Shown piece after piece: positions 1,628 through 50,803 of a stretch of DNA of 50,804 bases. The first letter of the stretch is position 1. Each line of letters starts with the position of its first letter. The DNA lies in assembly GCA_964520705.1 (NCBI GenBank), contig CAZFPS010000002.1, positions 1 through 50,804 of the forward strand, given 5' to 3'. Origin of the DNA: an uncultured Planctomycetia bacterium (GTDB lineage Bacteria; Omnitrophota; Gorgyraeia; Velamenicoccales; JABMQK01). Under the pieces are notes generated by a model. That model searched no databases, had not been told where the DNA came from, and saw nothing but the letters and a program-made list of their open reading frames with translations. A program made the position numbers and the translations under genes.

Positions 1628-4600
1628 AGCTCAAGCCCTGTCCGTTGGATAGAAACATTGGTTTTGAACCGGAGAATTAAGAAATACATTAATACGGGAG
1701 ATTATTATACAGGAATAGAACTGATGAAAGTTGGCGAGCCAATAATACAGTTACTCATCAGCTATTTGTCAAGAGATTTATACAATGATCAAAGAGAAAG
1801 GGTGATGGAGTTATTAAGTAAGTTAGGAGTTAAACACAAAGAATTAATTCCTGTATATGAGGTTTTATTAAATAATAAATATTGGAACGTAAGAAAATTT
1901 GCTGCGCAACAGTTTGAAGAAATGGATTGCCCAGCTAAACTTATAACTGATCGAGCAATTAAAGCTTTGATTATCTTGTTAGATGATCCTTATGCCAATA
2001 CTGAAGCAGCGAAAGCGTTACAGAAATTAGAGTGGTCGCCAAGGGATCAAGCAGAAAAAGCAATTTATTTGATAGTAAAAGGAGAACTTAGGGAGTTAGT
2101 TAGAACTTATCCTTCTAGAGCTGCGGCAGATTTTCTATTGAAAGCTTTCATGTATTTACCTGGAGATGATAATCGTATCTCGGTAGCAGATGCGATAGCA
2201 GAAACAGGATTTTCTGAAGCAATAGATAAGATGCGATCTCACATGTCGGTTGGTGTTTTGTATCTAATGGGTGATGAAAAAGCAGTGGAGGTTCTAGATG
2301 AAAGATTAGACGTGATTTATTGCGCTAGAGATTACTATCTTGCTTTAAGTATCCAAAATTTAGAAAACCGCCATGGCATGTTGCAGAAAAAATTCCCACA
2401 ATTGCTAAAGAAAGTAGAGAAAATTATATCTAACCGGACATTTAGTTCCGCTCCTTCGGTTTGGCGTGGTCCCTGCCCCAATAATGTTGGGGGGGATGGT
2501 CCCTATCCTGTAGCTTTGTCACAGGAAGAAAGTTTTTCAGGTTTTGATTCTCGCGATATGCGTTCAGAAATACTTTCAGAAGGACGACGGCCAGGTGATT
2601 ATCGCGGTAGAATAGATGATAATTATGCTCAAAAGGTTATTGCTGGTTACGCAAGGAGGGGAAAGGGCGATTCTGAAGAATATGTAGATATTCCTCGCAA
2701 TAACAGGATTCCTTTAAAGATCAATCCAAAAACAGGCGAAGTGTGGCATATTACATGGCAAGAATATGATGCACATATAAATAAACATGTGGATGGAATA
2801 AAAAGTTGTGGTTTAGGCGTATACACTCTGGTAGGGAAGGTCGATGACAATGCCCAAGCAAAAACCAAGGCAATTGTAGAAAAAACTGGAAAAGAAGGAA
2901 GAGTTAAGAAATTTGCCGATTTACCCGAAACCATAAAATCACAAATCCAGTCTCAGGGAATTAGAAGCGCCTTAGAAAAGGCAAATGTCCATATTATTAT
3001 GCCTGAATCAGGTATTGATTCAAGGGCACCTCCGTTCGTCTGGTATGAATCCCGCGATAGATTTGTGGTTGCCTGCACAATTGATGGTAAAGTTTACCTG
3101 CCATTATCACTCGTTAAGCTCGTCATACTTGCCAACGATGAATCTTTAATAGATTCTATATTAGAACATGAACAAAAAGATTTAAGGGAAAGAACAGAAC
3201 ATCCGGAAGAAGGAACTAAGTTAGCCCTGAAAGTAAGAGATTTGGAAGAAGATTTTTATGTTGCCGTTGTCCCTGTGTTTAAGAGCAGAGATGGTAAGGT
3301 TACCTATAAATATCAGCAGGGTGTGCAAGCTTTATTCGGTGGCCGAGTGTCGGAAGAAGCTATATCTATTTGGCAGAATTTTGTAAACGAAGAATTTAAA
3401 AATTCAGGTTTAATTCGTAAAGCTGTTATTGATGGAAGAGTTCAGCTGCTCAGAGGAAAGAAGAGCACTACTTTAATGTTCGTTGCTCCTCGTTCAATGA
3501 TAGTTGAAGGCAGGACCAAAGAAGAGAAAATAAGGAAAGAAGTAGAATTGGCATTGGATAGGGCAACAATTGCATTCATGAAACATTTCGGCGGTGACGA
3601 AGAAAAAGGTATCAAGGGTAGAGACATTAAGGCAGTCGCTACCATGACCACCTTTGCCTTGCCTCGCGATAGCCATACCTTAAAGCAGGTTAGCGATTCC
3701 TTACATGAATTAAGGATTTTACATAGAACTCCTGTTGTGAGCGTACAAGGTAACACCATATTCTACACAACAGCCAAGGAAGTAATTGATAGCACTGATG
3801 AGACGATGGCTAAAGAGGCGGAAAAGAAAGCCAGAGAAGAAAAGGCCGCAGAAGAAGCAGCGAATCCCAGGAAAGAAGAGAAAGAAGAAGTAATCAGGTA
3901 TCAGCTGATTAGCGAAGAGGCCAGCCAGAAATCTATTGAGGTTCTTGCTAAGATCATGGGCCGTAGCAAAGATGTGGCTACCAAGAAAGTCGAGATTTAC
4001 TTAAGCTACTTACAGTGGGCTGCCAGAGAACAATTAGGCACAACCATGGTCAGGCCTCAGGATGTGTTTAGATTAAATGAATTAACTGCAGAAGAGAAGA
4101 CCAAATTACAGGCTGCCGCAAAATACTTTGCCGCAGATGACGAGACCACGGCTTTAATCAATCATTTTGCCGGAGTAAGAACCAATGATGAAGGGATTAT
4201 AGTTGTCTTAAAAGGCGGAGTAAGAGCCGGATTAGAAGCTGAGACCCAGAGCGAAATAGTCAGGACCTTAAGCGATCGATATAATGTTACCCTTACTTCC
4301 CAGATAACCCTTGATCCGGATAGAATAGTTAAGCTTTGGAAAGTCCAGTTAATTAAACAGGTCAAGGCATTGGCTAAGGATAATATTCCTCAGCAGAAGA
4401 TCAACAAGCTTTTGAATCTGCTCAGCGCTAACCAAGGAAAAGCGTTTAAGGAGGCAGTTGATGAATTAAAGGCTGAGTTTACCAGGTCTCAGAAAGTCAA
4501 GGCCTTAGCTTATTCTATTACTTTCTTAAGCGGAAATATCAGGATTGTAAGATTAACCAGAAATAGCACTGAGCAGATTAAGTTAGAAGGCACTGATAGA

Positions 4601-7600
4601 GTAGCGACTATTGAGGAAGTAATCAAGGCGTATACTGAAGCCCTGGATAAGATAGTTGAGGCCAGGTTAGCCGCCAATATGGCCTTAGCGCATACCTTAG
4701 ATGAAGCCAAGAAAGCCGGGCTCACCGAAGAAACCATCAAAGAAGTTGTTTCTGCCTTTGAGTTTGTGGGCGCTGACAGAGTAGAAACAGTATTGGATGT
4801 GCTGAACCAGGAAGAGCGTAATAGGTTAGATAATGGTGAAAATTCTCCTTCAATTGAAAGAGAAATATTAAGAGAATATAAGATAACTGCCGGTGACCAG
4901 ACTGCAGTTGAGGAGTTATATGGAAGATTAGTCACTTTAGGCAATGCAGTAAGGCCGGAAGATACCGCAGCTGTCGCAAGAGACTTAGAAGGTATATTTA
5001 CCGGCACAGCCAATGCCGCAGAAGCCTTTGCGGATTATGCCAGAACCGAGAGATTTTTAACTGCGGTTCCGGAGTTTGCGGAGTTAAGGGATGTCGCTCA
5101 TAGAAGATATCATAGTACCATTACCATGTTTGAGCATAGCTTAATGGGTATCAAGGCTCTTGCTCAGGTAGAAGAAGCAGCGAAGTTAGTCACATTTATT
5201 TCATTGAGCAGCTTAAAAGAGGTAAGGGAAGCTTTGGCTACCGGAAACAGGACTGCAATAGTTATTGAAAATGAGAAACTTCTCAAAGAAAAAATGGAAG
5301 CTTATATCAAGGCAGTGCCTGGACTTAAAGGTATGAGCCGCGAGACATTCATCCAGTTTATCTGGGCATATCAGCAGGCAATTAACATCAGCTTAAAGAA
5401 CGGTAAGAACGCCAAGATGTTTATCTATATGCTTATGCTCTTGCATGATATCGGAAAGGCTGTAACTACCGGCCAGCACTTAAGCTTAGGTAAAGAGCTG
5501 ATCAAGAACGTTATGGAGCGTTTTGGATTTGCTGCCGAAGATATAGAGTTAGCTTCCTTCCTTGTGCTTAACCATAGTGTAAATACCAAGCTTTTGACCG
5601 GTAGCGATACTTATGCGGGTTTTGCTGAGCAGTTAAATAACATAGCCAAGGCAGAAGATAGAGACAGAATCTTGGCAGCGCTGGCTATGATGATAGTTGG
5701 CGATATCGCTGGTATAACTAATCCGGCGATAGCTTTGAATAACCAGAGACTGCTTGAGATATTAGGAATGGTAGTAAATAGAGAGCGCGTAGAAGAGAAG
5801 GCAGCCAATATCGAAGCCCAACTTATTAGTCGCATAGCTATCCAGATGAATTATCAGCCCACTGCTATCGGCGCAGACGAGCAAGTAGTAGCTAAGTTTA
5901 CCAAGGTATTTGAGCTCTTACCTGCTGATTTAAGAATACAGGCGATGGCTATACTTAGCGACAGGACTACCAGCATAGAAGAAAAGATGGATGCAATAGT
6001 CAAAGCTGTGAATGCTTTTGTAGCCGGCTTAGATGAAAACGCCATTAACAAATTCTCCTTACCAGACAGGCCTAAATCTTTGGTTACAGGTGAGTTGAAT
6101 CGTAAAGAATTGGCTGCCTACTTTGTCCAGGCTATTAAAGATGCGCAGTCTGCTGAGGAGTTGGTTCAGATAATCAGTCTCTTATCTATAGGCGCGCAGA
6201 GGAAAGTAGGAGAGGAAACAGCAAATGCAGAATTCTTTGAGACTCAAAGAGCAGTAGTTGCTAAGGCAGTTGAGAAATATTACAATGGCCAGAATGCTTT
6301 GGACAGGATACAGGAAATAAGGGCCGTCGCTGGCATGTATTTTGCCTATCTGTTTAATTCCAAGAAAGTTAAATCCGATAGATTCAGCAGTGTAATTAAT
6401 TTAATTAATGAAATAGAAAATACCAACTCCGGATTCAAGAGCTTCCTGAGCCGCGCGCAATTCAATTACACTGCTATCTTCTTCCAGAAGGCTTCTCCTG
6501 AAGCCATTGTCAACTTCTTGTATCTGGCTTACAGATATTATAGAGATAATAATATTACCGGCGTTCCTTTTATAATCTTATACACTGGTAAAGAAATTAC
6601 GGAGCAGGATATCAAGGTATTAGATATTAAATTAGCCACAGTTAGAATCTGGGAAAGCAATATTACTGATATTGAGGAAGAAGCAAGGGTTTATAGTCTG
6701 TATCCGGCTAACTTCCCGGCTCGCTCTCCTACCATAATTATGCATTTTACCGCCACTGAAGTTCCCTATATAGGTGAGCCATTTACCAGAAAAGAAGGGG
6801 TTATGCCGGAAGTAAAGGTAGAGAACAAACAGCAGGCGGCAACCCAGACCACTGAAGAAATACTGCAGGAAGCAGGATTAAAACTTGGCAATAATGCTGA
6901 GATTGTGGTCGTAAGTAAAGAAGGCAAGAAGCTTACGGCTGTTTTCGCTGCAGCTTTCGCAGGCGCACTCAAAGATGAGACAGGCAATGCAAGAGAATTA
7001 AGCGGCAGGATATTAATTGATGTAGATAAACAGTTCATCTGGTTAAGAGACAGCAAAGAAATATTTATCTTGGACGGTGAGGTGTTGGGTGGTGAGTTAA
7101 AGAGCTTTGTTGTACCTGAAGACCTGATTGCAAAGTTGGCTTATCTTGGCAAAGCAGATGTCCTTAAGGAAATAACGGAATTATTAAAGAAGGCCGATGA
7201 TGAATTATACAAGAAATTAGCAGTAGCAGCGTTGTTCATTCCTGGGTTAAAGAAAATTATGGAAGAGACAGCATTCTATCATAAAGAGTATGTCAATAGC
7301 CATATCAAGGTTCTTGAGGCTGCGCTTAAGGATTATATGAACGTATTGACTACCGGACAGTTAATACCTATGCCGTTGAATTTGGAGGATGAAAAGAAAG
7401 AAGAAGTTAAAGAAGTAAAGCTCGTTTACCCGGCAAAATTCGTAGAAATTTCTGCATTTAAGCCAGAGCAGGAAGGTGATCTTAGAAAAGCCTTGGCGGT
7501 TTTAAAATTAGACGGTTCTACTCGTAGTAAAGTGGATGCTATCTTAAATGACCAAGGCAAAGATTTTGAAGGTAAAAAGAAAGATATCAAAGAAGCCATT

Positions 7601-10600
7601 GAAGGATATGTCAAAACATTGGATCCTAATTCAATTGCTAAGTATATCGAAGTTGTCCTTAAAGGGCGCCAGGAATCATTTGAGGTTAAATATGATGTTG
7701 GTTTATCTAATATGGCAAAGTTTGATTTTGATGGTCAGAAAATCATTGTAACAATTAATATGGCTTTGCTCATGGGTGCTCCTGCTTACAGCACTTCTGA
7801 CGAAGCCTCGCAGGCCTTCCAGTTGGTAATAAATGACATTTTTGCCCATGCCGCGCTCTATAAGGAAGGGAAAGACAAATGGGCAGTTTTTGCTGACAGG
7901 GCAGAGAAATATTTCAAGTATCATCCTGAAGAGATAATTACTATTACCGAGGCTTTGACTTCCGGGGCCTACGATGTTATAGAAGGCATCAAGAACTTCA
8001 GCATCTTCAGGCCTAATATAACCAATAAAGGTCCTAAAGAGGCAGATGGAGATGATCTCTGCTATCTCACACTTTTAAGGATTAACTCTTTAAGAAAACT
8101 ACGTGAAGATTTAGAAGAAGAGTTAAAAAATAATCCTGCTAGCACAGAACATTCTATTGCCCGCAAGTATTTTGAAAGATTTAGTGAGTTTAAGCCTGAA
8201 TCTCAAGATTGGCCTTCCAGATTTACTCTTCCTATTGAGACCAACTGGTTGGTAACAATAGAAGAGGTAGGTAAGGCCAAGAGGTTCTTTGTTGCTTCCA
8301 GTGAAAGTATCACAGAATTAAATCCGATCCTTAAAGACAATAACCTGCGTATCAAAATCGCAGTTATCGTAGGTATGCATAAGGAAAAGAGCCGCCTTAT
8401 GCCTGCCCATGTAATAGATAATCCTAATGGCGAAGATTCGGTAATGAAGAAGATAAACCAACTTGAAGAACTCTTTGACGGCACCAACATTGATTGGGAG
8501 CTTATCTTTGTTGCCCATGTGAACTCACCGGATAATAGCGGCAAGGTGGTGGAAGACTTGCTTAAAGGAAGCGATAATGATAAACATCGTAAATATTACT
8601 ATTCAGGCCAAGTGCGTTCTGCTTATATGACCGGTCCTGGTGTAGGTAAAGGCGGCAAGGTTTACTTCGGTATGAAAGATGCCTTACGCAATACCTTAGA
8701 CCATAAGCCTGCTGATATACTGCTATATACCGATGCTGATGTTACCGTAGATTTAAGGCAGACTGGCCTCTTACTTAAGCCAATGCTCTTAGATGAAGAT
8801 GGTAAATTAAGAGTAGATAGCCAAGGTAGATTTAACGGCAGAATGGGTGCTTATGGTTCAAGATTTGGAGTTAAGGGAATTGAAGGTTTCTCTATGCCTG
8901 GACTTGATCCTTCGCCCACTGCTGAAGAAAATGTGGTAAATGACGCCGGCAGGGCATTTACTGCTAAATATCTCTTTGCGCCTATCAAAGCAAAAGGCTA
9001 CAGGGAAACTCAGTGTGGCTACAAGGCCTATCCTAAAGCTATTATAGAAGATATTATTGATACTGTAAAAGATACCACCTTTAGCTTTGACACCGAACTT
9101 ATGCATTTGACTTTGGAAGCAGGTGGCAGTCTTAAGGAAACAGGTATCTTTTGGTCTGATTCTTCAGCTGAGGCTTCAGGCACCAGCACCTTGGAACGTT
9201 GGAGAATGTTTAAGGCTTGGATTGAGCAGTATAGGAATATCCAGAAAGTTAAGACTATTGATGAAGAAGATCTAAAGATTGTTGAAGGGGCTGTTGATAA
9301 AGCTCTTGTATTAAAAACTACTAAAAAAGATACTATTGATATCGCCAATGAGATTATTAAATTCGGAAAAGCATTAGAAGAAAAAGAAAAGGCTAAAAAA
9401 TCCTCCTCTCCCATTGAATACTTAAAGCAGCCTTTGATTTTATCAGTTCACCTCCCAGACTGGGAAGAAAATAATCACTGCGGCTCACTGTTAGCTACAC
9501 CTTTAGCCTTAGAGCTTGCCAAGCAGGAAGCAAATAGAAGAAGAGAGCTAGCTTTAAATGGTGATGAAAAGTACTCTTCCTACAAAGATATTGATTTAGC
9601 CAAGCTCATTGAAGAGCGCAAGGTGCGTATCGCCGTATTCCATGACGCAGGTTCTGCTAAGCGTTGTTCTACATTATCCCAGTCCCAGAACGGCACAAGA
9701 GCTGACCTTAGGATATTAGGTGATATCAAGACTAAGGACGGAAGAACTTTTCCTTTAACCTTAGTCTTAGCCGTAGCTATCCAGAATTCAATATACGCCA
9801 CTACTCCGGAAGTAGTGGATGTCCACTATGTATCCCAGCTTTACTTTAATAAGGAATTAAAGCTAGAAGAATACCGCAAGTTCATGGAATCAGACAAGGA
9901 ATACGATGGCTACGATGTAATCATTGTTACTTCTTCCGACCCAGAGATAGTTAAGCTTCATCAGAAAACTTTTGACGCTGTATTTGGTCAAAGAGAAATC
10001 ACTAAGAATAGAGAGAATGTAGCGATACCGACAATGATTACTAAATTTGTTATCGGCACCGATCCGTCTATTGCTAAGCCTGAAGACTTACGTGACTTAG
10101 GTATGTACTTAATGGATCCTGCTGGCAATGTAAGAGTAAACCTTCCTAAAGGAAGTTATGCTACTAAAGAAGAGCTTAAAACCGGCAATGCAAAACAAAA
10201 AGGTTTACCTGCGCTTTCAGCTGAATACGACACTACTTTTAGCGCAGCCTACTCTTGTGGTTCCCATAGATTACATTATGACTTTATTGCTGCTTTAAAT
10301 GAGTTCTTTGGTGAAAGAGTTGCTAGAAGAACTGAGAAGGTAACTGTTCAACTTGAAGCCCCTGATTTTATTCAGCCTACACTTATATTGATAAAAGCCC
10401 TGCAGGATGCTACATCCAGGGGCATTGATACAAATACGCTTACTACCTCCGAAGCAGTCTTATCCGCAATCACCCCCGAAGACAAAGCAAGATTAGAAAA
10501 GTTCAACGACAGAAACCGTTACATCGATATCATCAACTTCTATTTAACCTACAGACACAAATTCTCTACTTGGGTTGGCGGCTACACTATCGGCAACAAC

Positions 10601-43600: not shown

Positions 43601-46600
43601 AGCGAAGTTCGGACCGAGGCAGTAGTGTTGATGGCTAAAGATTTAACCGAAAAAGAAAACATAGCCAGCCTGATGGTTTTATTTACTAGGATGATGGAGG
43701 TTTATAGAGGAGTAAACTCCAGCTCGCCGGTTGAGGAAAAAAGAAGTGCTTTCGATTCTTTGATTGTTTGTATGGATAAATATACTCGAAATTATTTATT
43801 CAATGTCTTAACCCTTGGTGTGATGGCCGGGATATTCTTAGGATTAGGTTTATATCCTGAAAAAATAGCCAGCGGACAAGCCAGCGGTTATTTGAATATA
43901 TGGCTAGAGGCAGTCAGGACGACTATTTTTAATATAGAGGTTTTGTGGAAGACATTCGTTGGGTTTTTTGTTTTTGGGGTCATGACGGATTATTTAGCCA
44001 AGCGTACTAATAGAGAGGAGTATTCTTGGAAGGCCTTTAAAGGGGCCACAATGTATGCCTTATTGAAGTTTCTTATTGTGCCGGCATTCTTTATCGCGAT
44101 TGCTCCGTTTAATAAATTTGTGCGTGGTTTTATTTCAGGGCTCTTGCTTAGTTACCTTCTTTTAAATATCCGGGCAAAGACATTTTATACCAAGCATCAG
44201 AACGGAAATGCGGGAGTGTTAAAGACCCAGCGCGCATATGAGATGTATTGGTTGACGCGCCTATGGATTTTTGGACAGAACTTTATTGTGCAAATTCTCT
44301 TTCCCATTGAACGTAGGGCGTTAGCAAATGTTATTATTTCGCAGTTACATTCCTTATATAACAGTTATGGGTTGCATGAACAGAAGGCTTCGCTGATTGA
44401 AAGACAAGATTTAATGGAGTCAATTAGACGGTCACTCTTTATAAAATGGCTCAGGAATGTCCAAAACGGCATAGAAGGTTTAACATCCGTTAAGCTTGGT
44501 AGGCCATGGGATAATTCGGCAGCGCTGTTGGTACATGGTCTTGTTGCGCCGTTCACTTTATTAGCAAATAAATTGAATGCAAGGCTACGGATTGCACGTA
44601 TTTCCAGGCTGGGAGAGAAAGATGAAGGTACCGCCAATTTTAGCATTAGTTCCATCCCAGAGGTAATCAAAGATTTAAAGCAAGGCAGGATGATTATTAT
44701 AGTTGATGATGCAAATCGTGAGAATGAGGGCGATCTTATGATTGCCGCCCAGAAGATTACTCCTGAGGCAATCACTTTTATGGCTAAAGAGGCAAGCGGG
44801 CTTATCTGTATGCCTATGGAGGCTAAGAGATTGGATGAGTTAAAGATTGGGCTGATGTTTAAGGGGAGCGGTGACAAGCAGGGAACCGGGTTTACGGTTT
44901 CTGTTGATGCCAGAGAAGGGACCACTACCGGCATCTCTGCCTCTGATCGCGCTCAGACAGCTAAGGTTTTGATTAATCCAGCAACTAAGCCTGAAGACTT
45001 AAACCGTCCCGGACACATGTTTCCTCTGCGGGCCAGAGAGGGAGGGGTGTTGGAAAGAGCCGGACATACCGAGGCCTCAGTTACTTTAGCAAAATTAGCC
45101 GGCCTTTATCCGGCAGCGGTAATCTGTGAAATTATGAACGAAGATGGGACTATGGCTCGCCTGCCGCAGCTGGTGGAGTTCTCCAAAAAGTATAATCTAA
45201 AGATTGCTACTATAGCTGATTTAATTAAATATGTATCCGGCGCCACTTCTAGCTCACCGGTTGATAAAGACAAGAAGAATATAGAACCGTCCCCGATTTT
45301 ACAAGATTCTAAAAAGTTCTCTGTTCCGCTTACTCGGCTGATCGGAGAGTTGCAGAAAGAGCGCGCGATGGTTTGTTCTATCCAGTCGCGGTGGGAGCCG
45401 GCAGTAGCGGTAACAATTTTCGGAAGCGCGCGTATTTCTGAAGAAGATCCTTACTACCAAATCGGCGTTAATTTGGGAAGAGCTATATATAACCACGGTA
45501 TGGTTATTCGCACAGGCGCAGGCCCGGGAATGATGGATGCGCCATTCAGGGGGTATATAGAAGCCAGGGAATCTTCGGGCGTAGAAAAAACAGAAGAAAA
45601 TGCAACTCAAGGCGTAAGAATCACTCTTCCTTTTGAACAAGAAGCTTCTCCTTACTGCGAAGATATCCTGACATATTCTCACTTTATTAACCGTAAATTA
45701 GCTCTTTGTGAAAATATTATAGGAACTATTGTTTTGCCGGGCGGCTTTGGTACGATAGATGAATTATTCGAGAGTTTGCTTAGAGGCGTGCCGACAGTTC
45801 TTTTAGTCAAAAGTTACTGGCAGCCGATTATGGATGCTTTTGAGGAGAGTTGGGCGAGGGGCTCTTTACAGAAGAATATCGGACTGCGGTTTTTAATTAC
45901 AGATTCTATCGGAGAGGCCTTAGCGCACATCAAGAGTAACGCGCAGAATATTGAACTTATTAAGCCCGACCAAAATAAACTGGGGCAGGACAATAAGGAG
46001 ATTGAAGAAGGCCTGTTGCGGCTTAAGGGTTTACCGCCGACAGTTACCTTTGTCGGCCGGCCAGGAGAAGATTACTTTGGATTAGATATTGTTGGAGAAA
46101 TAGCCTTCCGCCTCTTGTCCTATGGTATCGCTATTCGTACAGCCAGCCGCGATGTATTATTCAAGCGGCTTTTAAAAACTACTCAGGATAATCATAAACT
46201 TAATTTACTGCAAGCTACTATTTTCTTGCCGGAAAAAGATATTCCTCTGACCGTAGAAGAACTAAGTTTAGGCAGGAATCTTATAGTTATCCAGGATATC
46301 TTTAACCATCAGGTTTTGATCACTGAAAATTCTTTGGGTTTTGTGTTTCTGCCCGGCGGGATAGGCACATTAAATAAATTATTTGATATACTCTGCGTAA
46401 TGCAGACGGGAAAAGTGTCCCGTAGGCCCATTGTGCTCATCGGTGGGGAATTCTGGCAGCCCATAAAGGATGCCATTGTAAATGCTACTCTATTTCGCTC
46501 GCCACCTTTGATTTCCGCGGGAGATGAGAACTTAATGCGTATTGTTGATACAACAGAACAGGCTTTGGAGATTTTAGGATTAGAACAGATTGCTAGTTCG

Positions 46601-49600
46601 CCGGTAGATCAAGGTATTGAGTCTCAAGATTTAGGAGAGTTAGGGTATATCGTTAGAAACATTCTAAGATATAAAAGAGCAAAGGCTGTAAAAGAAGATA
46701 AAAAAGGAAGATTGAATGCGCCTCAGCTTTTAGTAATAGCAATGTCCTTGTCGGTTATACTTAATAAAGAATATAAGCTAATTGAAGATATTGTTTTTAA
46801 AGAATACAGCCGTTTGTTGGATGAAGGAAAATCTGGATCAAGTCCTATACGGGCTTATCCTTTGAATGTCCCGGCGGCCGAGCAGAAAGAGGCATCAGTT
46901 AAATTTGGAGCGGATTTATTTGTCAGGTTATCTTTTATTCTCTATGGCAACAATTATGAAATAACTTTAAGCGAAGGACAAATGCACAAGGAGTGGGAAG
47001 AGGATTTAAGGGATTTAGCCTATAATTTATCTTCAAAGATTCGCGGCCCTCCTAGAAAACTTACCTTTTACATTTCTACTGATATAGAATTTACCGATTA
47101 CAGCGTTGCCGTAAGATTAACCGCAACCCACATAGTCCTGCACCCGTATTTCTTTAATCTATTCTCTGACTGTAAAAAGATCTGGCAGACTGAAATAATC
47201 CTAGATCTGCTGAATAAAAAATCAAAATCTTCATCTCCTCTGGGCTCCATAGTCAACACCTTTACCTCCAGCTCCCCCATCCAGCATCAGCTCGTCATCG
47301 ACCTTGTTTCTAATCAAATCATTCAGCGGCCTTCGGTTACCGGCAAGCGCATCTTGCGTAAAGAAGGCATTAGCGAAGGTATGGTTCTTGAGGGTATTGC
47401 TAACGGAACACTCAAGCTAATCTCTGAAAAAGCTTTTATCGAATCTTTAGATAGGTCTACTACCGGTATTGGTATCTCAGGCGGCGGCGACTGCGCCGGT
47501 ATAGCTGACTTCTTCCGTTCTTTAAGGTATAATCTAAAACCTGAATTAACCATGCTCGGTGTCAGGAATGCCGGTGAAGGCTTAATGGATAAAGACTTCT
47601 TAAGCAAGCTAATCTTAGTTGACCCTCTTTTAGCTGAAGACTTCCTCGGCCAATCCTCTACTCCCTACGGCTCTTCCCGCGAAGATCCTTTAAAAAAGAA
47701 TAAAGAAACCACGCAAAGGAATCTCTCCGGTTTTAAATTCTTCTATGGCACCGGCGGTAATGATCATTTAGGCCTCTTAGAGCGCTTCTCTCGATTGCTT
47801 CCAGAATTAGTGGTAGTAGGGACTTTTAAAAGTATTGATGGTGATGGTTGGGTTGCCGGCAGGCCTGCTCAGATGCTGGGTTTTTACACTGCAACCGGAG
47901 TTTACCAAAGGCAGCTTTGGGCAATTACCCAGAACGCCTATACTCATCAGCAGCGGCATGTGGTTGAGACTTTTGGCCGGGGTTGCGGCAAACTTGCCTA
48001 TGCTTCAAGCCGCAGATATCCAGAGAATTTTAATACACTCTCCAAAGAAGAGCAGCGTAAAATTATTGAATTCCGCGACCTGGTAATGATTATCGTTCCT
48101 GAAAAACCTACTTCTTTGCGTTCCATTGCCCAGGAAGCCAAAAGGATTAAGCAAGAACAGGGTGGAGTAGTGGTGGTAGTAGCCGAGGGTTTTATGCCTC
48201 CAGAATTAAAATCAGAGATCATCAGGCTTGGTTTAGATGAATCATTAAGAGACCGCTGGTTCAGGCATGACCTTCCTGTTGAAAGTATCTCTAGCCTTAT
48301 CCACAAAGAAGGAAGAGAGTCTCCGACTGATGACTTAAGTCTCATGCTTCAAGATCCGGAATTAGCTGCTCAATTTGCCAAGACCACCTGGCAGGCTAAA
48401 TTTGACCCCCATGGCAATGTCACTAAACTCGCTGGAATCACAAACTTCATCATCAAGGCCTTAGAAGTATTGGGCGGCGCTACTAAAGTCAACAGAGTCC
48501 TCTTTAATTACGGAGCCAGAGACGCTACCCCGGATGCTTATGATATTCATATGGGGGAAAAGATCGGTGTTGTCGCAGCGCAGCTTATTAATGACAATGT
48601 CATTGGCGGTAAAGCCGTAGTTTATTTTGAAGGGATGAATCCTAAAGAAGAAGAGCCTGAAGTTGTAGACTTAGTAGGTGTATCCGATAAGAACAACCTG
48701 AATAATCCGGACCTTTATACTGAAGAAGAATTAATTAAGAATGGAGTGTATTGGGAGAAAAAGACCAGCTCACCGGTAGTTCGAGATAACGCAGAGATGC
48801 TACAACTAATCTTTAATTTATTTAATTATTTTGACTGTCAGAATAAAATTCTTAGGCAACAGGTTTTATCTTTAAATAGGCCATTGAGTTTAGATGGGGA
48901 AGAGCCTGGTTACCTCGGGTATATTCCTTATGCTTATTATTATACTGATATTTTATATCTTATCTGGCGGTATTCCTCTTATCTAAATAAACAGCAAGAG
49001 ATAAAGGCCTTGGAGATTGGTTCAGGCGCAGGATGGTTCCTGTTGTTCCTTAAGGCCTTAAAAGAAAAGCCTCTAAAAGATAATCTGCGGCTGGAAGAAT
49101 TCCAGAAAAAGTTAATGAATATGGAATACGATAGATGGTTTAAAAAATTAAAAAGGCTGCTAGAAAATATGGAGTTTGAGGGGATTGATATTAATCTATA
49201 TCTTTGCCGCTTTGCCCAATGGAGAGGATTAAATGTATTAAATGCCGATATCTTGAATCCTCCTGTTTTAGATCATTACGACCTTACTTTTAGTGAAAAT
49301 GTATTAGATCTTTTGCAGGTTAATGGAAAGTTGTTTAAGCCCTATAACCCCGAAGCCAGCTTTGAATTAGGGAAAGAAGCATTGGTGAGGATCAGCCAAT
49401 TGACTAAGGCTGGAGGCTTAAGCATCCATACTTCTGATTTTGGCTTTCCTCTTAGAAGGGAAAGTATTAAAGAGTCTGGTTTTGAAATTTTAGAAGGCGA
49501 TCCGGCAGGAAGGATTCTTGTACTTCGTAAGGGTTACTCCAGCTCACCGGCGGAAAGAGATTTATCTTCGGCGATAAGCGTCTTCTCTAGTGTCTACTCC

Positions 49601-50803
49601 ATCTATGACAATGCTTTTGCCTACAAGATAAAAACAGATACGGTATTTTCCTACTCTGAATCTGTGAGTGGCGGGAGGCAGGTTAACGAGAGGTTTGGCA
49701 AAATACAAGGGTTTACCGGAAGAAATATAGAGGCCAATTTTTTCTATAATGCGTTTTTTCAGCGGGAGAGGAAGCTTTTTAAATTCCCGTTCGCCGGCAG
49801 GAGCAAACTCAACTTTGGTAAGCATAGCAAGATTCAGGACAGCCCTAATTTATGCTTAATTTTATCAAAGGACACCAACCCCAGCGTTTGGGCCTCCACA
49901 ATGCCTTTCTTTAATCTTAAGGCTAGCTTAGGGTTAATCGGCAGGCGTTCTTCAATTCCATCAATAAGCCAGCCAACAGGATTATGGAAGACGTACTCTT
50001 TAGCGGGAGCGGATTCCTCAAATTTAGCGTCAAACGCGCAGAGGAGATCCCATAGGGAGCCCGTATCAAAGATAAAATATTTAGGGGCGCCGTTTTTATC
50101 CACAACTGCCGCAGCCTTAAAATTCTTAAGTTCCGATTTCTTAAATTCTTTAGGAATAGCCGCAAATTTCTCAATGGGCTCTACTTTGACAAGTTCTTTA
50201 ACTGATAACTTAACTAATGATTTTGATCTCATTTTTTCGCTCCCCTCTATTTTTAAGCAGTATAACACATTCTTTTTTAATCTGTCAAGCCCGATATCGT
50301 TAACGAATACACCTGATTCTTTACTGGCAAAGTCAACCTGCTTCAGCTTGACGGTACGAGGCATGGCTGATAGTGGGTTTTTATTTTTACCTTTGCGGAA
50401 AGCGCTTTCGTTGTATAGCCATATTTTACGTAATCCCAAACGCACTAGCTCTCCGGTGGAGGCGAGGACGTCAGAAGATATTCTTAAGGATATTCTTAAG
50501 GCGAGGCAGAGAGCGCATGAGTACTCACAGGAATTATTGAGTCACCAGCAGGATACGCCTGCGGCCGGGCCGAATGCTTATAAAGTTATCCATAAGGATT
50601 CTTTGAGAGCGCTTGAGGCAGCGCGGGCTTACTTACAGGAACTTTTAAATTGTCCGCAAGATATATCTTTACAGCTAAAGCAGCTGGATGAATTAGGCTT
50701 ATTGGTTGAACTTTACTCATCCCAAACCCCGAAGAAAGAAGCCAGCTCGCCGGTAGGTAAAGAGGCGATTGCCGAGATGATGCTGCGAGAAGACGTAAGA
50801 GGA
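2..50803 (+). CDS. Single giant multi-enzyme ORF, open at both window edges (16,934 codons); chain of ~40 enzyme-like modules separated by SSSP[V/I/A] linkers
   Basis: Frame-2 translation read end to end shows no TAA/TAG/TGA. Every recognisable catalytic motif in the window lies in this frame: HAD DxDG, GT2 DAD/QCGFK, Nudix box, HxHxQ, ROK DxGGT, PGI SKSGxTDET, PFK, RibB, LOG PGGxGT, HPr GLHTR. The supplied ORF track lists no + strand frame-2 ORF ending inside the window, as expected if the frame never closes. Confidence 0.9.
1700..2300 (+). other. HEAT/PBS-lyase-like helical repeat region
   Basis: Helical repeats such as ..YWNVRKFAAQQFEEM.. and ..ITDRAIKALIILLDDPYANTEAAKALQKLEW.. resemble HEAT_2-type repeats. 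Pattern recognition only. Confidence 0.35.
5100..5715 (+). other. HD-superfamily metal-dependent phosphohydrolase-like domain
   Basis: ..MFEHSLMGIKAL.. then MLMLLHDIGKAVTTGQHLSLGKEL..FLVLNHS..MIVGDIAG. This gives the H..HD..H..D arrangement. The HD dyad codons are at 5444-5449. Confidence 0.55.
7798..8340 (+). other. Conserved domain of unknown function preceding GT2 (copy 1)
   Basis: ..SQAFQLVINDIFAHAALYKEGKDKWAVFADRAEKYFKYHPEE..CYLTLLRIN... Closely similar at nucleotide level to 13922-14458. Confidence 0.5.
8351..9240 (+). other. GT-A fold family-2 glycosyltransferase domain (DPM1/ALG5/GpgS-like), copy 1
   Basis: IKIAVIVGMHKEKSRL..NPNGEDS..IDWELIFVAHVNSPDNSGKVV..LYTDADVTVD (DAD near 8729-8740)..ETQCGYKAY (9011-9025)..FSFDTELMHL. 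Confidence 0.7.
9413..11290 (+). other. Large conserved module (copy 1): nucleotide-sugar-enzyme-like N-half and hexapeptide (left-handed beta-helix-like) repeats near the C-terminus
   Basis: ..RIAVFHDAGSAKRCSTLSQSQNGTRADLRILG.. resembles the G-rich loop of NTP-transferases. ..ISGIYIRNSIIRNSTIKEGNIINSVVSDSLIAKL.. has 6-residue periodicity. The family is not identified with certainty. Confidence 0.35.
11291..12049 (+). other. HAD-IA beta-phosphoglucomutase-like domain, subtype A, copy 1
   Basis: [26 protein letters not shown] (motif I); [12 protein letters not shown] (II); GKPDPDIF (III); LEDAVKGVKA (IV). Confidence 0.75.
12113..12880 (+). other. HAD-IA beta-phosphoglucomutase-like domain, subtype B, copy 1
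   Basis: [57 protein letters not shown]. Confidence 0.75.
12893..13702 (+). other. HAD-IA beta-phosphoglucomutase-like domain, subtype A, copy 2
   Basis: [71 protein letters not shown]. Confidence 0.75.
13922..14458 (+). other. Conserved domain of unknown function preceding GT2 (copy 2)
   Basis: ..SQAFQLVINDIFAHAALYKEGKDKWAVFADRAEKYFKYHPEE..CYLTLIRIN... Paralogue of 7798-8340. Confidence 0.5.
14459..15350 (+). other. GT-A fold family-2 glycosyltransferase domain, copy 2
   Basis: KIKISVIVGMHKEKSRL..NPDGEDS..IDWEFIFVAHVNSPDNSGKVV..LYTDADTTVD (14846-14857)..ETQCGFKAY (15122-15136)..FAFDTELMSL. Confidence 0.7.
15524..17338 (+). other. Large conserved module (copy 2) with hexapeptide-repeat-like C-terminal part
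   Basis: Paralogue of 9413-11290: ..RIAVFHDAGSAKRCSPLSQSQNGTRADLRILG.. and ..IGNVYLKNSIVTNSNITEGNVINSVISDSVITKL... The stretch 16101-16210 is almost identical to 10041-10150. Confidence 0.35.
17339..18160 (+). other. HAD-IA beta-phosphoglucomutase-like domain, subtype B, copy 2
   Basis: [57 protein letters not shown]. Confidence 0.75.
18161..18988 (+). other. HAD-IA beta-phosphoglucomutase-like domain, subtype B, copy 3
   Basis: [56 protein letters not shown]. Confidence 0.75.
19150..19960 (+). other. GT-A fold family-2 glycosyltransferase domain, third, more divergent type
   Basis: KIKVWVVFAVYNELSRI..NPHGEDA..LDWRLVMVDNRSPDKTSEV..GYTDCDITT (19526-19540)..DTQCGFKFF (19741-19756)..WAFDTEWLLL. 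Confidence 0.7.
20264..20620 (+). other. Nudix hydrolase domain
   Basis: GAVSKGEKAIAAGMREFGEELGI at 20450-20518 fits the Nudix box GX5EX7REUXEEXGU exactly. Upstream is ..HHASAYVIVKAPSGKIYLQLRG... Confidence 0.75.
21152..22144 (+). other. HIT-superfamily, GalT/Ap4A-phosphorylase-branch nucleotidyltransferase-like domain
   Basis: CILC at 21461-21472; ..VVNKIPWATYHMLLMS..; ..ASIPHFHLQFF with H-x-H-x-Q at 21704-21718. Confidence 0.55.
22352..23155 (+). other. HAD-IA beta-phosphoglucomutase-like domain, subtype A, copy 3
   Basis: [71 protein letters not shown]. Confidence 0.75.
23156..24108 (+). repeat. Direct repeat copy 1 (953 bp), apparently identical to 25121-26073
   Basis: Same sequence at an offset of 1965 nt. 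The shadow ORFs 23464-23706 and 25429-25671 translate identically. The repeat starts at tcctcctcccccata and ends at tcatcgcctgt. Confidence 0.85.
23168..24097 (+). other. HAD-IA beta-phosphoglucomutase-like domain, subtype C (long cap insertion), copy 1
   Basis: [57 protein letters not shown]. Confidence 0.7.
24690..25060 (+). other. GHKL / HATPase_c-like ATPase domain (no DHp His seen upstream; anti-sigma-type Ser kinase-like)
   Basis: IHEIFSNAVKHGNS (N-box-like); ISDEGRS; LRGAGLGIYKAG (G2-like); GTEVTIVKYL. Confidence 0.55.
25121..26073 (+). repeat. Direct repeat copy 2 (953 bp), apparently identical to 23156-24108
   Basis: See copy 1. Bounded by SSSPI (25121-25135) and GSSPV (26063-26074). 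Confidence 0.85.
25133..26062 (+). other. HAD-IA beta-phosphoglucomutase-like domain, subtype C, copy 2
   Basis: Amino-acid sequence identical to 23168-24097. Confidence 0.7.
28140..28760 (+). other. Uridine kinase / phosphoribulokinase-family P-loop kinase domain
   Basis: RVIIGFMGPSSAGKTTFVKML (Walker A, 28161-28200); LGLDSYLHD; ILIMDITCLG; RLQRRLERDTR. Confidence 0.6.
28829..29590 (+). other. HAD-IA beta-phosphoglucomutase-like domain, divergent subtype A, copy 4
   Basis: [57 protein letters not shown]. Confidence 0.65.
30205..31030 (+). other. HAD-IIB (phosphomannomutase / Cof-type phosphatase-like) domain
   Basis: VVIADMDETLTPSRS (DxDxT); VILSSSD; GGTTSIDIGLINAKGNAI; YFGDSFDLSGNDTPV. 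Confidence 0.6.
31097..32060 (+). other. ROK-family sugar kinase (glucokinase-like) domain
   Basis: MLAIGVDLGGTKISAAAV; GIGIAAPGILD; YDATAAALGEAVFG; YMSIGTGIGSGII; MLGGGV. Confidence 0.7.
32591..33540 (+). other. Second ASKHA/ROK-like sugar-kinase-fold domain (divergent)
   Basis: LFIGINIGSTYTRCSVI; GIGIGTVGMV; MDNKVAALGERFGIG; LGTAMAGKMI; AVAIGAAYMA. Confidence 0.5.
34360..34800 (+). other. Udk/PRK-like fold with degenerate Walker A (possible pseudokinase)
   Basis: VIVRIDGRPGNRKSHSISLL replaces GxxGxGK[ST]. It is followed by YKVILVEGTII and FTVYIESIEQRRMEYL, matching the layout of 28140-28760. Confidence 0.35.
36250..36440 (+). other. PurM/AIR-synthase-superfamily N-domain-like fragment
   Basis: ISILGLPTGPSVGIDLLQDFLASMVEATDAIGIPIVGGHTVEN. 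Confidence 0.3.
36500..37560 (+). other. Selenophosphate synthetase (SelD)-like PurM-superfamily domain
   Basis: FRAQGCAAKYPP (Cys codon 36545-36547); DDQSSIAFTVDIIKPIVNSSKLFSRIAVVHATSDLYAKG; ASTDVTGFSLIGHL; DAQTSGGMLIS. Confidence 0.6.
37700..38520 (+). other. Histidine-kinase core (DHp-like H-box plus HATPase_c), no sensor domain evident
   Basis: LTEALHDIKNKFIAVNGFMSLF (His codon 37748-37750); LDEALYNAWKYG; IEGSGIGLAAIKRNCDLIGG. Confidence 0.55.
38600..39260 (+). other. Cytidylate kinase-like domain with altered P-loop
   Basis: [36 protein letters not shown] follows the Cmk N-terminal pattern, but GSGRR replaces GSGK[ST]. Confidence 0.45.
39665..39961 (+). repeat. 99-aa helical module, copy 1 (paralogue of 50456-50752)
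   Basis: VEARAPKDILKDILKARQEAYEYSRELLSHQQDTPAVGPNAYK..LQELLNCPQDISLQLKQLDELGLLAEL... Bounded by SSSPV and ASSPA. Confidence 0.8.
39992..40240 (+). other. HPr (phosphocarrier protein)-like domain
   Basis: KIIITSRLGLHTRVAVGIAKIV (His codon 40031-40033); ANAESIMQLLALAAGYGDSVVIEVRG (Ser46-like site). Confidence 0.65.
40616..41287 (+). other. Integral-membrane module, about 6 predicted TM helices
   Basis: Hydrophobic ~20-aa stretches: ISFIPAVCIVISWFSG, FLSGLAIAGIVGGIA, WIIAGVAFNGLIGFGLWFWF, LIDLTAYTIIVVLPINFLI, LYWGPALFIGWTFW, IVLIAANMTVIWSGILIYLLDLWI. Confidence 0.6.
41330..43700 (+). other. pgi: Glucose-6-phosphate isomerase (SIS/PGI) domain with large insertions
   Basis: ISGIGIGGQT; WVVGSKSGSTDETMVNF (41711-41740); GPAEQHKSFQLTSGG (about 43398-43440). 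Confidence 0.65.
43790..44310 (+). other. Second integral-membrane module, about 4-5 predicted TM helices
   Basis: FNVLTLGVMAGIFLGLGLY, FVGFFVFGVMTDYL, ALLKFLIVPAFFIAIAPF, FISGLLLSYLLLNI, LWIFGQNFIVQILFPI. Confidence 0.55.
44650..45235 (+). other. ribB: 3,4-dihydroxy-2-butanone-4-phosphate synthase (RibB) domain
   Basis: [117 protein letters not shown]. Confidence 0.85.
45400..45950 (+). other. LOG-family (TIGR00730-type) domain 1
   Basis: VTIFGSARI; GMVIRTGAGPGMMDA; IVLPGGFGTIDELFE (PGGxGTxxE, 45737-45775). Confidence 0.7.
46035..46580 (+). other. LOG-family domain 2 (more divergent)
   Basis: GFVFLPGGIGTLNKLFD; RRPIVLIGGEFWQPI. Confidence 0.55.
47330..48740 (+). other. pfk: 6-phosphofructokinase (PfkA-family) domain
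   Basis: GIGISGGGDCAGIADF; FFYGTGGNDHLG (47747-); VVGTFKSIDGDG; ETFGRGCGKLA; VVVVAEG. Order and spacing match the PfkA motifs. The phosphoryl donor (ATP or PPi) cannot be called. Confidence 0.65.
48900..49520 (+). other. Class I SAM-dependent methyltransferase domain
   Basis: ALEIGSGAGWFLLFL (motif I, 49010-); FEGIDINLY; YDLTFSENVLDLL; LTKAGGLSIHTS. Confidence 0.55.
49562..49825 (-). CDS. RelE/ParE-family type II toxin, antisense inside the giant ORF
   Basis: 87-aa ORF. ..EREFKKLPLPLKKRIIEKI..THRFRVGKYRICFYLVGKSIVIDGVDTREDAY fits the RelE/ParE pattern (RvGdYRiiY..v.hR.eaY). It starts 8 nt after the partner ORF. The + strand turns pyrimidine-rich here, unlike the rest of the window. Confidence 0.75.
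   Translation of the reverse strand: MLTKVEFAPAGEREFKKLPLPLKKRIIEKIGLYISSGKPLYFAKPLVNLPPATHRFRVGKYRICFYLVGKSIVIDGVDTREDAYRRR
49834..50232 (-). CDS. Putative cognate antitoxin (132 aa, Phd/YefM-like core)
   Basis: ATG at 50232 is preceded by GGGGAG (7-nt spacer) and a sigma70-like promoter. ..KNFKAAAVVDKNGAPKYFIFDTGSLWDLL.. resembles the Phd/YefM core. It lies directly upstream of the toxin in the usual operon order. Confidence 0.6.
   Translation of the reverse strand: MRSKSLVKLSVKELVKVEPIEKFAAIPKEFKKSELKNFKAAAVVDKNGAPKYFIFDTGSLWDLLCAFDAKFEESAPAKEYVFHNPVGWLIDGIEERLPINPKLALRLKKGIVEAQTLGLVSFDKIKHKLGLS
50240..50245 (-). promoter_or_regulatory. Shine-Dalgarno site for the antitoxin
   Basis: The minus strand reads GGGGAGcgaaaaaATG. 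Confidence 0.6.
50259..50288 (-). promoter_or_regulatory. Sigma70-type promoter driving the antisense toxin-antitoxin operon
   Basis: The minus strand reads cTTGACAgattaaaaaagaatgTGtTATACTgc. The -35 TTGACA is at 50283-50288, the spacer is 18 nt, and the extended -10 TGnTATACT has its -10 at 50259-50264. Confidence 0.6.
50456..50752 (+). repeat. 99-aa helical module, copy 2 (paralogue of 39665-39961)
   Basis: VEARTSEDILKDILKARQRAHEYSQELLSHQQDTPAAGPNAYK..LQELLNCPQDISLQLKQLDELGLLVEL... Roughly nine in ten nucleotides match copy 1 by eye. Confidence 0.8.

Follow-up and report, generated by a model that had tools for sequence, protein, structure and literature searches.

A recurrent Ser-Ser-Pro-aliphatic junction motif in a giant multi-enzyme reading frame of the Omnitrophota

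The window analysed here is a stretch of 50,804 nucleotides (contig CAZFPS010000002.1, positions 1 to 50,804) from an uncultured bacterium of the Omnitrophota, and it is crossed by one open reading frame (ORF) in which a short peptide motif, Ser-Ser-Pro followed by an aliphatic residue, recurs between enzyme-sized units. We tentatively favour the reading that this motif is recognised at the protein level, endoproteolytic processing being the likeliest purpose. Given that a strictly ordered string of four to five residues stands in unconserved linkers between unrelated folds, and that it is swapped for other strings in relatives, we infer that a trans-acting protein reads it.

The motif and the units it separates

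Read on the + strand from base 2 onward, the window has no stop in 16,934 codons and is open at both ends, and the other five frames contain 582-1,804 stops. As this ORF extends past both ends, a listing of ORFs shows nothing further of interest. The window is an internal piece of one gene longer than 50.8 kb.

2..50803 (+): giant multi-enzyme gene, single ORF (stop count, Pfam and NCBIfam scans)

Enrichment was measured against 2,000 residue shuffles of the protein. SSP is observed 35 times (2.54 +/- 1.57 expected, shuffle maximum 10), SSP[VIAL] also 35 times (0.80 expected), and SSSP, the top over-represented 4-mer of the protein, 23 times (0.18 expected, shuffle maximum 2), while the reversed controls PSSS and [VIAL]PSS have no occurrence in the protein. 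The residue after SSP is aliphatic or alanine at every site, with V at 16, I at 13, A at 4 and L at 2. The conserved core can be written as [S/A/G/T]-S-S-P-[V/I/A/L], in which S-S-P is invariant and the order is fixed; it carries about 4-5 bits per position over three positions and about 2 bits at -3 and +1. Lysine is favoured at -4 to -6 relative to the proline (K at -5 in 13/35 sites), and the +2 position is E in 10/35 sites and E or D in 13/35. Near-miss variants are rare against the 35 exact sites, the clearest being SNSPI and SASPV, with TTPV, SSTPY and SSSR as other near matches. The original prediction had listed 35 positions and claimed that the motif is translated and far above chance. 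All 35 positions lie in the coding frame, every site is in the single stop-free frame, and the shuffles bear out the enrichment; the list itself is right for 34 of its 35 entries, since 31067 is the variant SASPV, and it had overlooked LSSPI at 50282-50296. The sites and the two clearest variants are given below with the evidence in brackets, where pLDDT is the predicted local distance difference test of AlphaFold.

1628..1642 (+): junction SSSPV, residues 543-547 (motif position)
9401..9415 (+): junction SSSPI, paralogous to junction 15512 (internal duplication alignment)
12101..12115 (+): junction VSSPI, 3 residues before HAD envelope, end of mini-spacer 1 (Pfam)
12881..12895 (+): junction SSSPI, 18 residues after HAD envelope, paralogous to junction 18989 (Pfam, duplication alignment)
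13703..13717 (+): junction SSSPV (motif position)
15512..15526 (+): junction SSSPI, paralogous to junction 9401 (internal duplication alignment)
18989..19003 (+): junction SSSPV, SSSPM in relative P0005 (alignment)
21059..21073 (+): variant junction SNSPI, aligns with ASSPL of P0005 (alignment)
21140..21154 (+): junction VSSPI (motif position)
22145..22159 (+): junction SSSPV (motif position)
22340..22354 (+): junction SSSPI, 15 residues before HAD envelope (Pfam)
23156..23170 (+): junction SSSPI, left edge of 953-bp repeat copy 1 (repeat alignment)
24095..24109 (+): junction GSSPV, right edge of 953-bp repeat copy 1 (repeat alignment)
25070..25084 (+): junction SSSPL, 12 residues after HATPase_c_2 envelope, start of mini-spacer 2 (Pfam, AlphaFold)
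25121..25135 (+): junction SSSPI, left edge of repeat copy 2, confident HAD fold from next residue (repeat, AlphaFold)
26060..26074 (+): junction GSSPV, right edge of repeat copy 2, confident HAD fold ends (repeat, AlphaFold)
26939..26953 (+): junction TSSPI, end of mini-spacer 3 (motif position)
30131..30145 (+): junction SSSPA, 25 residues before Cof-type HAD envelope, coil with pLDDT < 50 (Pfam, AlphaFold)
31064..31078 (+): variant junction SASPV between Cof-HAD and ROK units, coil with pLDDT < 50 (AlphaFold)
32081..32095 (+): junction SSSPV, 16 residues after ROK envelope, coil with pLDDT < 50 (Pfam, AlphaFold)
32162..32176 (+): junction SSSPA (AlphaFold, motif position)
37631..37645 (+): junction SSSPV (TCCAGCTCGCCGGTT), 36 residues after AIRS_C (Pfam)
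39653..39667 (+): junction SSSPV, left edge of 99-residue helical unit (repeat alignment)
39950..39964 (+): junction ASSPA, 14 residues before HPr, right edge of 99-residue unit (Pfam, repeat alignment)
40604..40618 (+): junction SSSPI, before unit with five hydrophobic segments (hydropathy)
41276..41290 (+): junction SSSPV (motif position)
43718..43732 (+): junction SSSPV (motif position)
45248..45262 (+): junction SSSPV, 9 residues after DHBP synthase envelope (Pfam)
46592..46606 (+): junction ASSPV, 11 residues after LOG envelope (Pfam)
46835..46849 (+): junction GSSPI (motif position)
47228..47242 (+): junction SSSPL, start of mini-spacer 4 (motif position)
47267..47281 (+): junction SSSPI, end of mini-spacer 4, start of PFK unit (profile match)
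48764..48778 (+): junction TSSPV, end of PFK unit (profile match)
49538..49552 (+): junction SSSPA (motif position)
50282..50296 (+): junction LSSPI, absent from the earlier list (motif scan)
50444..50458 (+): junction TSSPV, left edge of 99-residue unit copy 2 (repeat alignment)
50741..50755 (+): junction ASSPV, right edge of 99-residue unit copy 2 (repeat alignment)

The position of the sites relative to domains was evaluated with Pfam envelopes obtained from 1000-residue chunks that were cut without regard to the motif. None of the 35 sites falls inside an envelope (7.95 expected, P about 2e-4), and 10 lie beyond an envelope edge but no more than 25 residues from it (2.3 expected, P < 2e-4). 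The other sites border sequence that carries no annotation, so that the earlier statement that nearly all sites sit at domain borders went too far, although its direction is right. The envelopes and two AlphaFold models support the placement of the motif in exposed linkers that border units the size of an enzyme. For residues 10030-10740, the ROK fold is predicted with pLDDT about 90 (model residues about 338-655) and the model's four motif sites lie in coil with pLDDT < 50. For residues 8200-8700, the pLDDT is <50 up to the second SSSP, reaches about 94 with the very next residue and falls again at the following SSP, which means that the confident HAD fold of this model is bounded by the motif within 1-2 residues; in the ROK model the gap between site and confident fold is about 10-15 residues. 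Averaged over the sites, a dip in hydropathy and a positive net charge are found at positions -8 to -1.

Free-standing homologues give a second measure of the borders. An exhaustive HMMER search with residues 3752-4575 as query returned 14,573 HAD relatives, and 35 free-standing ones (<=300 residues) were used. Their homology starts at median residue 4039, where the motif proline is residue 4037, and their projected C-termini fall at median residue 4291 (interquartile range 4287-4295.5), where the next SSSP occupies 4294-4297. As judged from these alignments, one HAD unit corresponds almost end to end to free-standing enzymes.

The 34 internal units between motif sites have a median length of 303 residues, the longest being 2,591, 1,823 and 1,159 residues. 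Pfam was run on the arbitrary 1000-residue chunks and on the motif-delimited units, and NCBIfam was also run. About 18 families tile the ORF with no dominating scaffold repeat, the commonest being HAD (HAD_2/Hydrolase) with about 11 copies. Kinase-type modules comprise two ROK, a PRK/uridine-kinase, a cytidylate-kinase-like module and PFK, and further modules are a Cof-type HAD/PMM, NUDIX, DUF4922, AIR-synthase-related N and C domains, HPr, DHBP synthase and LOG/SLOG. There are also two HATPase modules, one of them RsbW-like (RsbW/SpoIIAB-like serine-kinase type), HEAT repeats, an HD motif and three GT2-like modules, and NCBIfam adds weak similarity to glucose-6-phosphate isomerase and methyltransferases. 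The ROK (339 residues), Cof-HAD (311 residues) and PFK (499 residues) units each give one near-complete profile match, and the ROK, Cof-type HAD, PFK, HPr, DHBP synthase and LOG profiles are each contained in a single unit.

By hydropathy alone, eight hydrophobic 19-mers are found, one at residues 12133-12153, five at 13554-13738 and two at 14598-14704. Transmembrane-like clusters thus occur amid the string of soluble enzymes at 40661-41215 (five segments, unit of residues 13539-13762) and at 43793-44113 (two segments), and the five-segment cluster occupies one whole motif-delimited unit.

Codons, duplications and double junctions

The window holds an old internal duplication (residues 2566-4298 against 4611-6334, 61% identity). 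At the junction pair 12881/18989, AGC TCA AGT CCT ATT faces AGT TCT TCA CCG GTT, and SSSP is kept despite four synonymous changes, including AGT<->TCA, where the flanking residues have diverged. The pair 9401/15512 keeps SSSPI with two synonymous changes. Given that SSSP is kept through synonymous changes at paralogous junctions, selection acts on the amino acids, and we judge from these alignments that the core is under purifying selection at this level. The in-frame junction copies with at most one mismatch from AGCTCNCCGG also all still encode SSP.

At the DNA level, the peptide motif is written in two dialects, TCN-TCN-CCY (1628-32095) and AGC-TCR-CCG-G (37631-50755). The first serine of SSP is TCN in 16/18 sites upstream of residue 10700 and AGY in 14/17 sites downstream (Fisher 3e-5), and the proline codon is CCG in 2/18 upstream sites versus 13/17 downstream (Fisher 1e-4), while the two halves do not differ in their background usage of Ser and Pro codons. 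AGCTCNCCGG has 10 exact copies, all of them in frame and all within 37.6-50.7 kb (about 0.2 estimated by chance), and after removal of recent duplicates there are 16 pairs of identical SSP 9-mers versus 4.9 expected (P = 0.002). The motif codons are skewed to rare G/C-ending ones, with TCG at 31% (7% in the background), CCG at 43% (22%) and TCC at 57% (15%). The segregated dialects and the identical junction DNA mean that junctions have also been copied regionally and that many share DNA ancestry. This suggests that the upstream and downstream parts of the gene gained or spread their junctions independently, and the gene may be a mosaic. The original prediction had taken the use of both AGY and TCN codons as a sign of conservation at the protein level. 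Both families are indeed used, and paralogous junctions keep SSSP synonymously, but codon diversity as proof of independent conservation has to be corrected, since most of it reflects two spatially separate sets of sites, one of which holds the ten copies of AGCTCNCCGG.

Two recent duplications have the motif at their edges:

23156..24108 (+): HAD cassette, copy 1 of the 953-bp repeat, 100% identical, motif-bounded (DNA self-alignment)
25121..26073 (+): HAD cassette, copy 2 of the 953-bp perfect repeat (DNA self-alignment)
39650..39980 (+): 99-residue helical unit with both junctions, copy 1 (88% DNA identity to 50441-50774)
50441..50774 (+): 99-residue helical unit with both junctions, copy 2 (DNA self-alignment)

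The 953-bp identity begins at TCCTCCTCCCCCATA (SSSPI) and ends after TCATCGCCTGT (SSPV), with unrelated flanks. It reflects either gene conversion or a duplication of very recent date, or else it may be an assembly artefact. The motif junctions are the points at which cassettes get duplicated, besides being unit borders.

The two 953-bp copies are separated by the RsbW-like HATPase unit. The 99-residue helical unit (39665-39961 and 50456-50752) has no family match; over a repeat that takes in upstream sequence, the two copies share 73% amino acid identity. HPr follows immediately after one copy, and the unit could be an adaptor or docking module. Just past a junction, a 12-nt tandem doublet (GATATTCTTAAG x2, 50477-50501) encodes DILKDILK, and the paralogous copy at about nt 39680 gives the same peptide.

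At four places a pair of junctions brackets a conserved hydrophobic stretch of 9-14 residues, always ending in Ile:

12050..12115 (+): mini-spacer 1, SSSS-IGALVGMFTSTKDV-SSPI
25070..25135 (+): mini-spacer 2, SSSP-LGALVVLISSTKD-SSSPI
26888..26953 (+): mini-spacer 3, SSSR-FGTSIALVSSTGNT-SSPI
47228..47281 (+): mini-spacer 4, SSSP-LGSIVNTFT-SSSPI

Their consensus is SSS[P/S/R]-[L/I/F]-G-x-[L/S/I]-[V/I]...[S/T]-[S/T]...-SSPI, and their pLDDT in AlphaFold is < 50. By analogy, these double sites resemble the spacer peptides of polyproteins.

Processing site, hinge, modification site or DNA signal

Short ordered strings in unconserved linkers are typical of sites recognised by enzymes. The most likely reader would be a site-specific endoprotease that cuts at or next to Pro-[V/I/A/L], and the four to five informative positions would fit the subsite span of such an enzyme. 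In its x-x-Pro-aliphatic arrangement the motif recalls AAPV, AAPL and AAPF, which are substrates of S1 (elastase-like) and S8 (subtilisin-like) proteases. The giant product would then be processed in polyprotein fashion, yielding short spacer peptides and enzymes that are either free or nicked. The uniform DNA of neighbouring junctions shows that they spread by copying as well, as cassettes are added or duplicated. The fullest version of this proposal is that the ORF is a metabolic polyprotein, in which a lineage-particular endoprotease cuts S-S-S-P|[V/I] co- or post-translationally and frees dozens of enzymes plus the spacers. Stated in full it is possible though doubtful; the enzymes released would include HAD phosphatases, sugar kinases, HPr, RibB, LOG and PFK. 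If the junction code and its protease co-evolve, this would explain why junction strings differ in relatives.

Several points weigh against processing. No protease family (Pfam, NCBIfam) and no HExxH or GDSGG-type motif was found within the 16,934 residues of this incomplete gene. Cytoplasmic metabolic polyproteins are, to our knowledge, without precedent in bacteria, which gives the proposal a low prior. HAD modules start at residues 3752, 5776, 6060 and 9604, inside longer units, with no motif. The junction DNA is partly identical by descent, and part of the uniformity may come from recent copying. Finally, the junction strings that relatives have of their own are statistically only suggestive and rest on few sites.

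The main rival, which we regard as rather unlikely, is an uncleaved hinge, where the serines make the joint flexible and the proline keeps secondary structure from crossing between cassettes; the uniformity would come from copying, and the giant product would be a membrane-tethered string of enzymes. The location of the sites in low-confidence coil between folds agrees with this, as do the signs of copying (the segregated dialects, the repeated AGCTCNCCGG and the excess of identical 9-mers) and the lack of a protease within the window. The hydrophobic transmembrane-like segments in two units fit the picture of an anchored scaffold (10.64898/2026.06.07.730766). Nonetheless, passive linkers are normally the least conserved parts of a protein, yet here S-S-P is invariant, the next residue is always aliphatic or alanine, and near misses are rare. 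SSSP also outlasts four synonymous changes at an old paralogous junction with diverged flanks, and a hinge offers no obvious role for double sites with a conserved hydrophobic mini-spacer.

There is a small chance that the motif is a modification or docking site, where Ser-Ser-Pro is phosphorylated, O-glycosylated or bound by a domain of the same protein, in order to regulate or pack the enzyme string. A strict short motif within exposed linkers would suit this, and the ORF carries HATPase modules of RsbW/SpoIIAB-like serine-kinase type, the HAD modules of phosphatase type and the GT2-like modules. None of the HAD or GT2-like modules is an evident protein-modifying enzyme, given that the HADs are of beta-phosphoglucomutase type (HAD_2) and that the GT2-like modules resemble polyprenyl-phosphate sugar transferases. 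In addition, no reader domain was identified in the ORF, and modification has no specific tie to the borders of cassettes.

The weakest of the alternatives, and an improbable one, places the signal in the DNA: TCC AGC TCR CCG G or TCC TCC TCY CCC would serve as microhomology for duplication and shuffling of cassettes, or else as a rare-codon patch, in which TCG, CCG, TCC and CCC slow the ribosomes at cassette borders and aid co-translational folding. Both recent duplications break exactly at the motif, the motif codons are shifted to rare G/C-ending ones, and the dialects do not track background codon usage, all of which speaks for such a signal. It is opposed by the 953-bp cassette, which is flanked by differing versions of the motif (TCCTCCTCCCCC on the left and TCATCGCCTGT on the right) with no duplicated target. 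Many sites have quite different codons, and in a relative (L004) a junction motif is kept with scrambled codons. The string has no palindromic symmetry, its sites show neither an Rfam match nor a tandem repeat, and the motif is always in frame and always SSP, with all single-mismatch copies being synonymous.

Further candidates were weighed. A helix N-cap box (S-P-x-E) would call for E or D at +2, which is present in only 13/35 sites, and the AlphaFold models start no helix at the motif; in both models it is followed by coil, beta-strand, or a helix 3-4 residues on, all of low confidence. The aliphatic residue is no vestigial start codon, as its codons are mostly GTT, GTA and ATA rather than ATG, GTG or TTG. 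An internal Shine-Dalgarno sequence is not apparent either, since only two sites contain GGAGG, formed by GTG GAG G, and no start codon comes after it. A target-site duplication by a cassette-inserting element is contradicted by the two different motif versions that flank the perfect 953-bp cassette. A signal peptidase I site is unlikely because Pro at +1 blocks the enzyme. Nor do the sites look like RNA elements or tandem repeats: Rfam matched nothing, and Tandem Repeats Finder reported only the 12-nt doublet at 50477-50501.

Relatives and comparison with known systems

The closest database proteins are partial proteins from metagenome-assembled genomes (MAGs) of Candidatus Omnitrophica/Omnitrophota, among them P0001 at 51% identity, and in locus L005 the identity reaches 66% over the GT2-like module. 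The original prediction had proposed a search for the motif in homologous giant ORFs, and the outcome is divided. The relative P0005, at 60% identity, keeps SSSP-type junctions, with SSSPM, ASSPL and ASSAL at aligned junctions, whereas relatives at about 50% identity lack the motif there. The homologous junctions of the latter have unrelated residues (KKKEPEIAPYPLGL in P0001, KDSRMRPDNPMIL in L001 and QSRS in L009), and L005 shows GCVVSSRTEE..., about 25 residues upstream, at its homologous junction. No strict motif was found in P0037 and P0039. Some relatives seem to have recurrent strings of their own, although the counts are small and no more than suggestive. In L001 and P0092, A-[N/S]-S-A-G stands directly ahead of HAD modules; ANSAGELKGIIFDLDG aligns with SSSPILKAAVFDLDG of the window, and the Pfam HAD envelope begins 3 residues after. 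In L004, A-x-S-L-G occurs seven times with Ser and Leu codons fully scrambled, and in L005 VSS occurs eight times versus 1.5 expected. In the sequences compared, the strict SSSP[V/I] code is confined to this lineage and P0005.

For the motif-rich 3' part, a search with residues 12545-13760 found no relatives at E <= 1e-3. A metagenome scan with the GT/NUDIX region returned only a free-standing GT homologue of 459 residues (L086, in an ordinary neighbourhood) and a short fragment. The genome scan was dominated by generic GT2 genes, with only L005, L009, L011, L012 and L063 from Omnitrophota.

The GT2-like module is present three times in the window, at about 7697-9412, 13715-15523 and 19001-20000, with the signatures YTDAD...TQCGFK...FSFDTE; it is the best-conserved part among the Omnitrophota relatives, and it is this module that stands as a gene of its own in L086. 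At about 29621-29683, PFPGQPLPSPEAVKKEV resembles RPLPG[Q/E]PMP[S/T]REEVN.EV, found in P0002 and P0039 (twice), and by this resemblance may be another module-start element conserved across lineages. In L001 (ENA NODE_12376, 8970-21677), the array is split into consecutive large genes in the same frame with one or two stop codons between them; the downstream genes each begin with a Met of their own and have a hydrophobic N-terminus, and the locus contains a stretch of N near 8970-9070. In view of this, the stops were not taken for decayed junctions. The whole 16-kb locus of L011 (Omnitrophota GFS_5990, 102-kb contig) is an open giant frame of 5,335 codons with five repeats of a transmembrane-like element, three of them QWGW[I/V]GLGVLA... 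and two KIISAGLGVLTV....

The gene class to which the window belongs is already known. Giant genes of Omnitrophota reach about 147,000 codons, and giant proteins described as a 'multi-enzyme metabolic cluster' have been reported and pictured as an anchored scaffold (10.64898/2026.06.07.730766). Cleavage of the products of giant Omnitrophota genes has been proposed, with S8 and C39 domains reported in them, and the giants were not subdivided for lack of information on cleavage points (West-Roberts et al., 10.1101/2023.11.21.568195). The window shares with these genes an ORF of >16.9 kAA (thousand amino acids) tiled by HAD, ROK, NUDIX, HATPase, PMM-like and kinase modules with occasional transmembrane-like segments, and its best relatives are Omnitrophota/Omnitrophica MAG proteins. 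It differs in that a recurrent junction, linker or cleavage motif is mentioned in neither giant-gene paper (10.64898/2026.06.07.730766; 10.1101/2023.11.21.568195). A junction motif is not mentioned by Seymour et al. 2023 either, and full-text literature searches for SSSPV or SSSPI gave nothing relevant; the junction motif is new to the searchable literature.

The motif bears on the explicit open question of whether giant products are one chain or cut pieces. Its 35 sites are the first concrete candidate cut, hinge or modification points in giant proteins of this kind, and its strictness supplies objective cassette borders for annotation and structure prediction. It is also a handle on how giant genes grow, given that recent duplications break at the motif and that junction DNA is regionally copied. 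If cleavage proves true, a bacterium would be using a polyprotein strategy for housekeeping enzymes.

Among the systems known to us, the Ser/Pro/Thr-rich or polyserine linkers of cellulases and scaffoldins likewise join domains in large multi-modular bacterial proteins. Those linkers are long, of low complexity and without a constant length or order, whereas the motif here is fixed at 4-5 residues, with S-S-P in invariant order and an obligatory aliphatic residue or alanine after the proline. MARTX toxins share with the window independent enzyme modules in a very large bacterial protein and unstructured linkers, which in MARTX are processed. The analogy with CPD-processed MARTX arrays that had been drawn finds no support in the domain content, as neither Peptidase_C80/CPD nor RTX/MARTX repeats were detected in the window by Pfam and NCBIfam. 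Moreover, the MARTX CPD needs only Leu at P1, whereas the motif here is a strict S-S-P-aliphatic with Leu after Pro in only 2/35 sites, and MARTX modules are toxins where those here are enzymes of housekeeping type.

In eukaryotic and plastid polyprotein precursors, the decapeptide linkers of Euglena LHCII and the EEKKN linkers of Nicotiana proteinase inhibitors are, like the junctions here, short and uniform between units, and they are removed by a dedicated protease. Their units repeat one protein family, whereas the units here have unrelated folds. Viral polyproteins (Q|G for picornavirus 3C, LQ|S/A for coronavirus Mpro) also have a short ordered consensus between autonomous protein-sized units, some of their sites enclose short spacer peptides, and the consensus varies between lineages. 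The differences are that the host here is a bacterium, the enzymes are of cytoplasmic metabolic type, no cognate protease was identified and cleavage is only proposed. What the window has in common with polyproteins is a recurrent short consensus, placed in accessible linkers between autonomous units.

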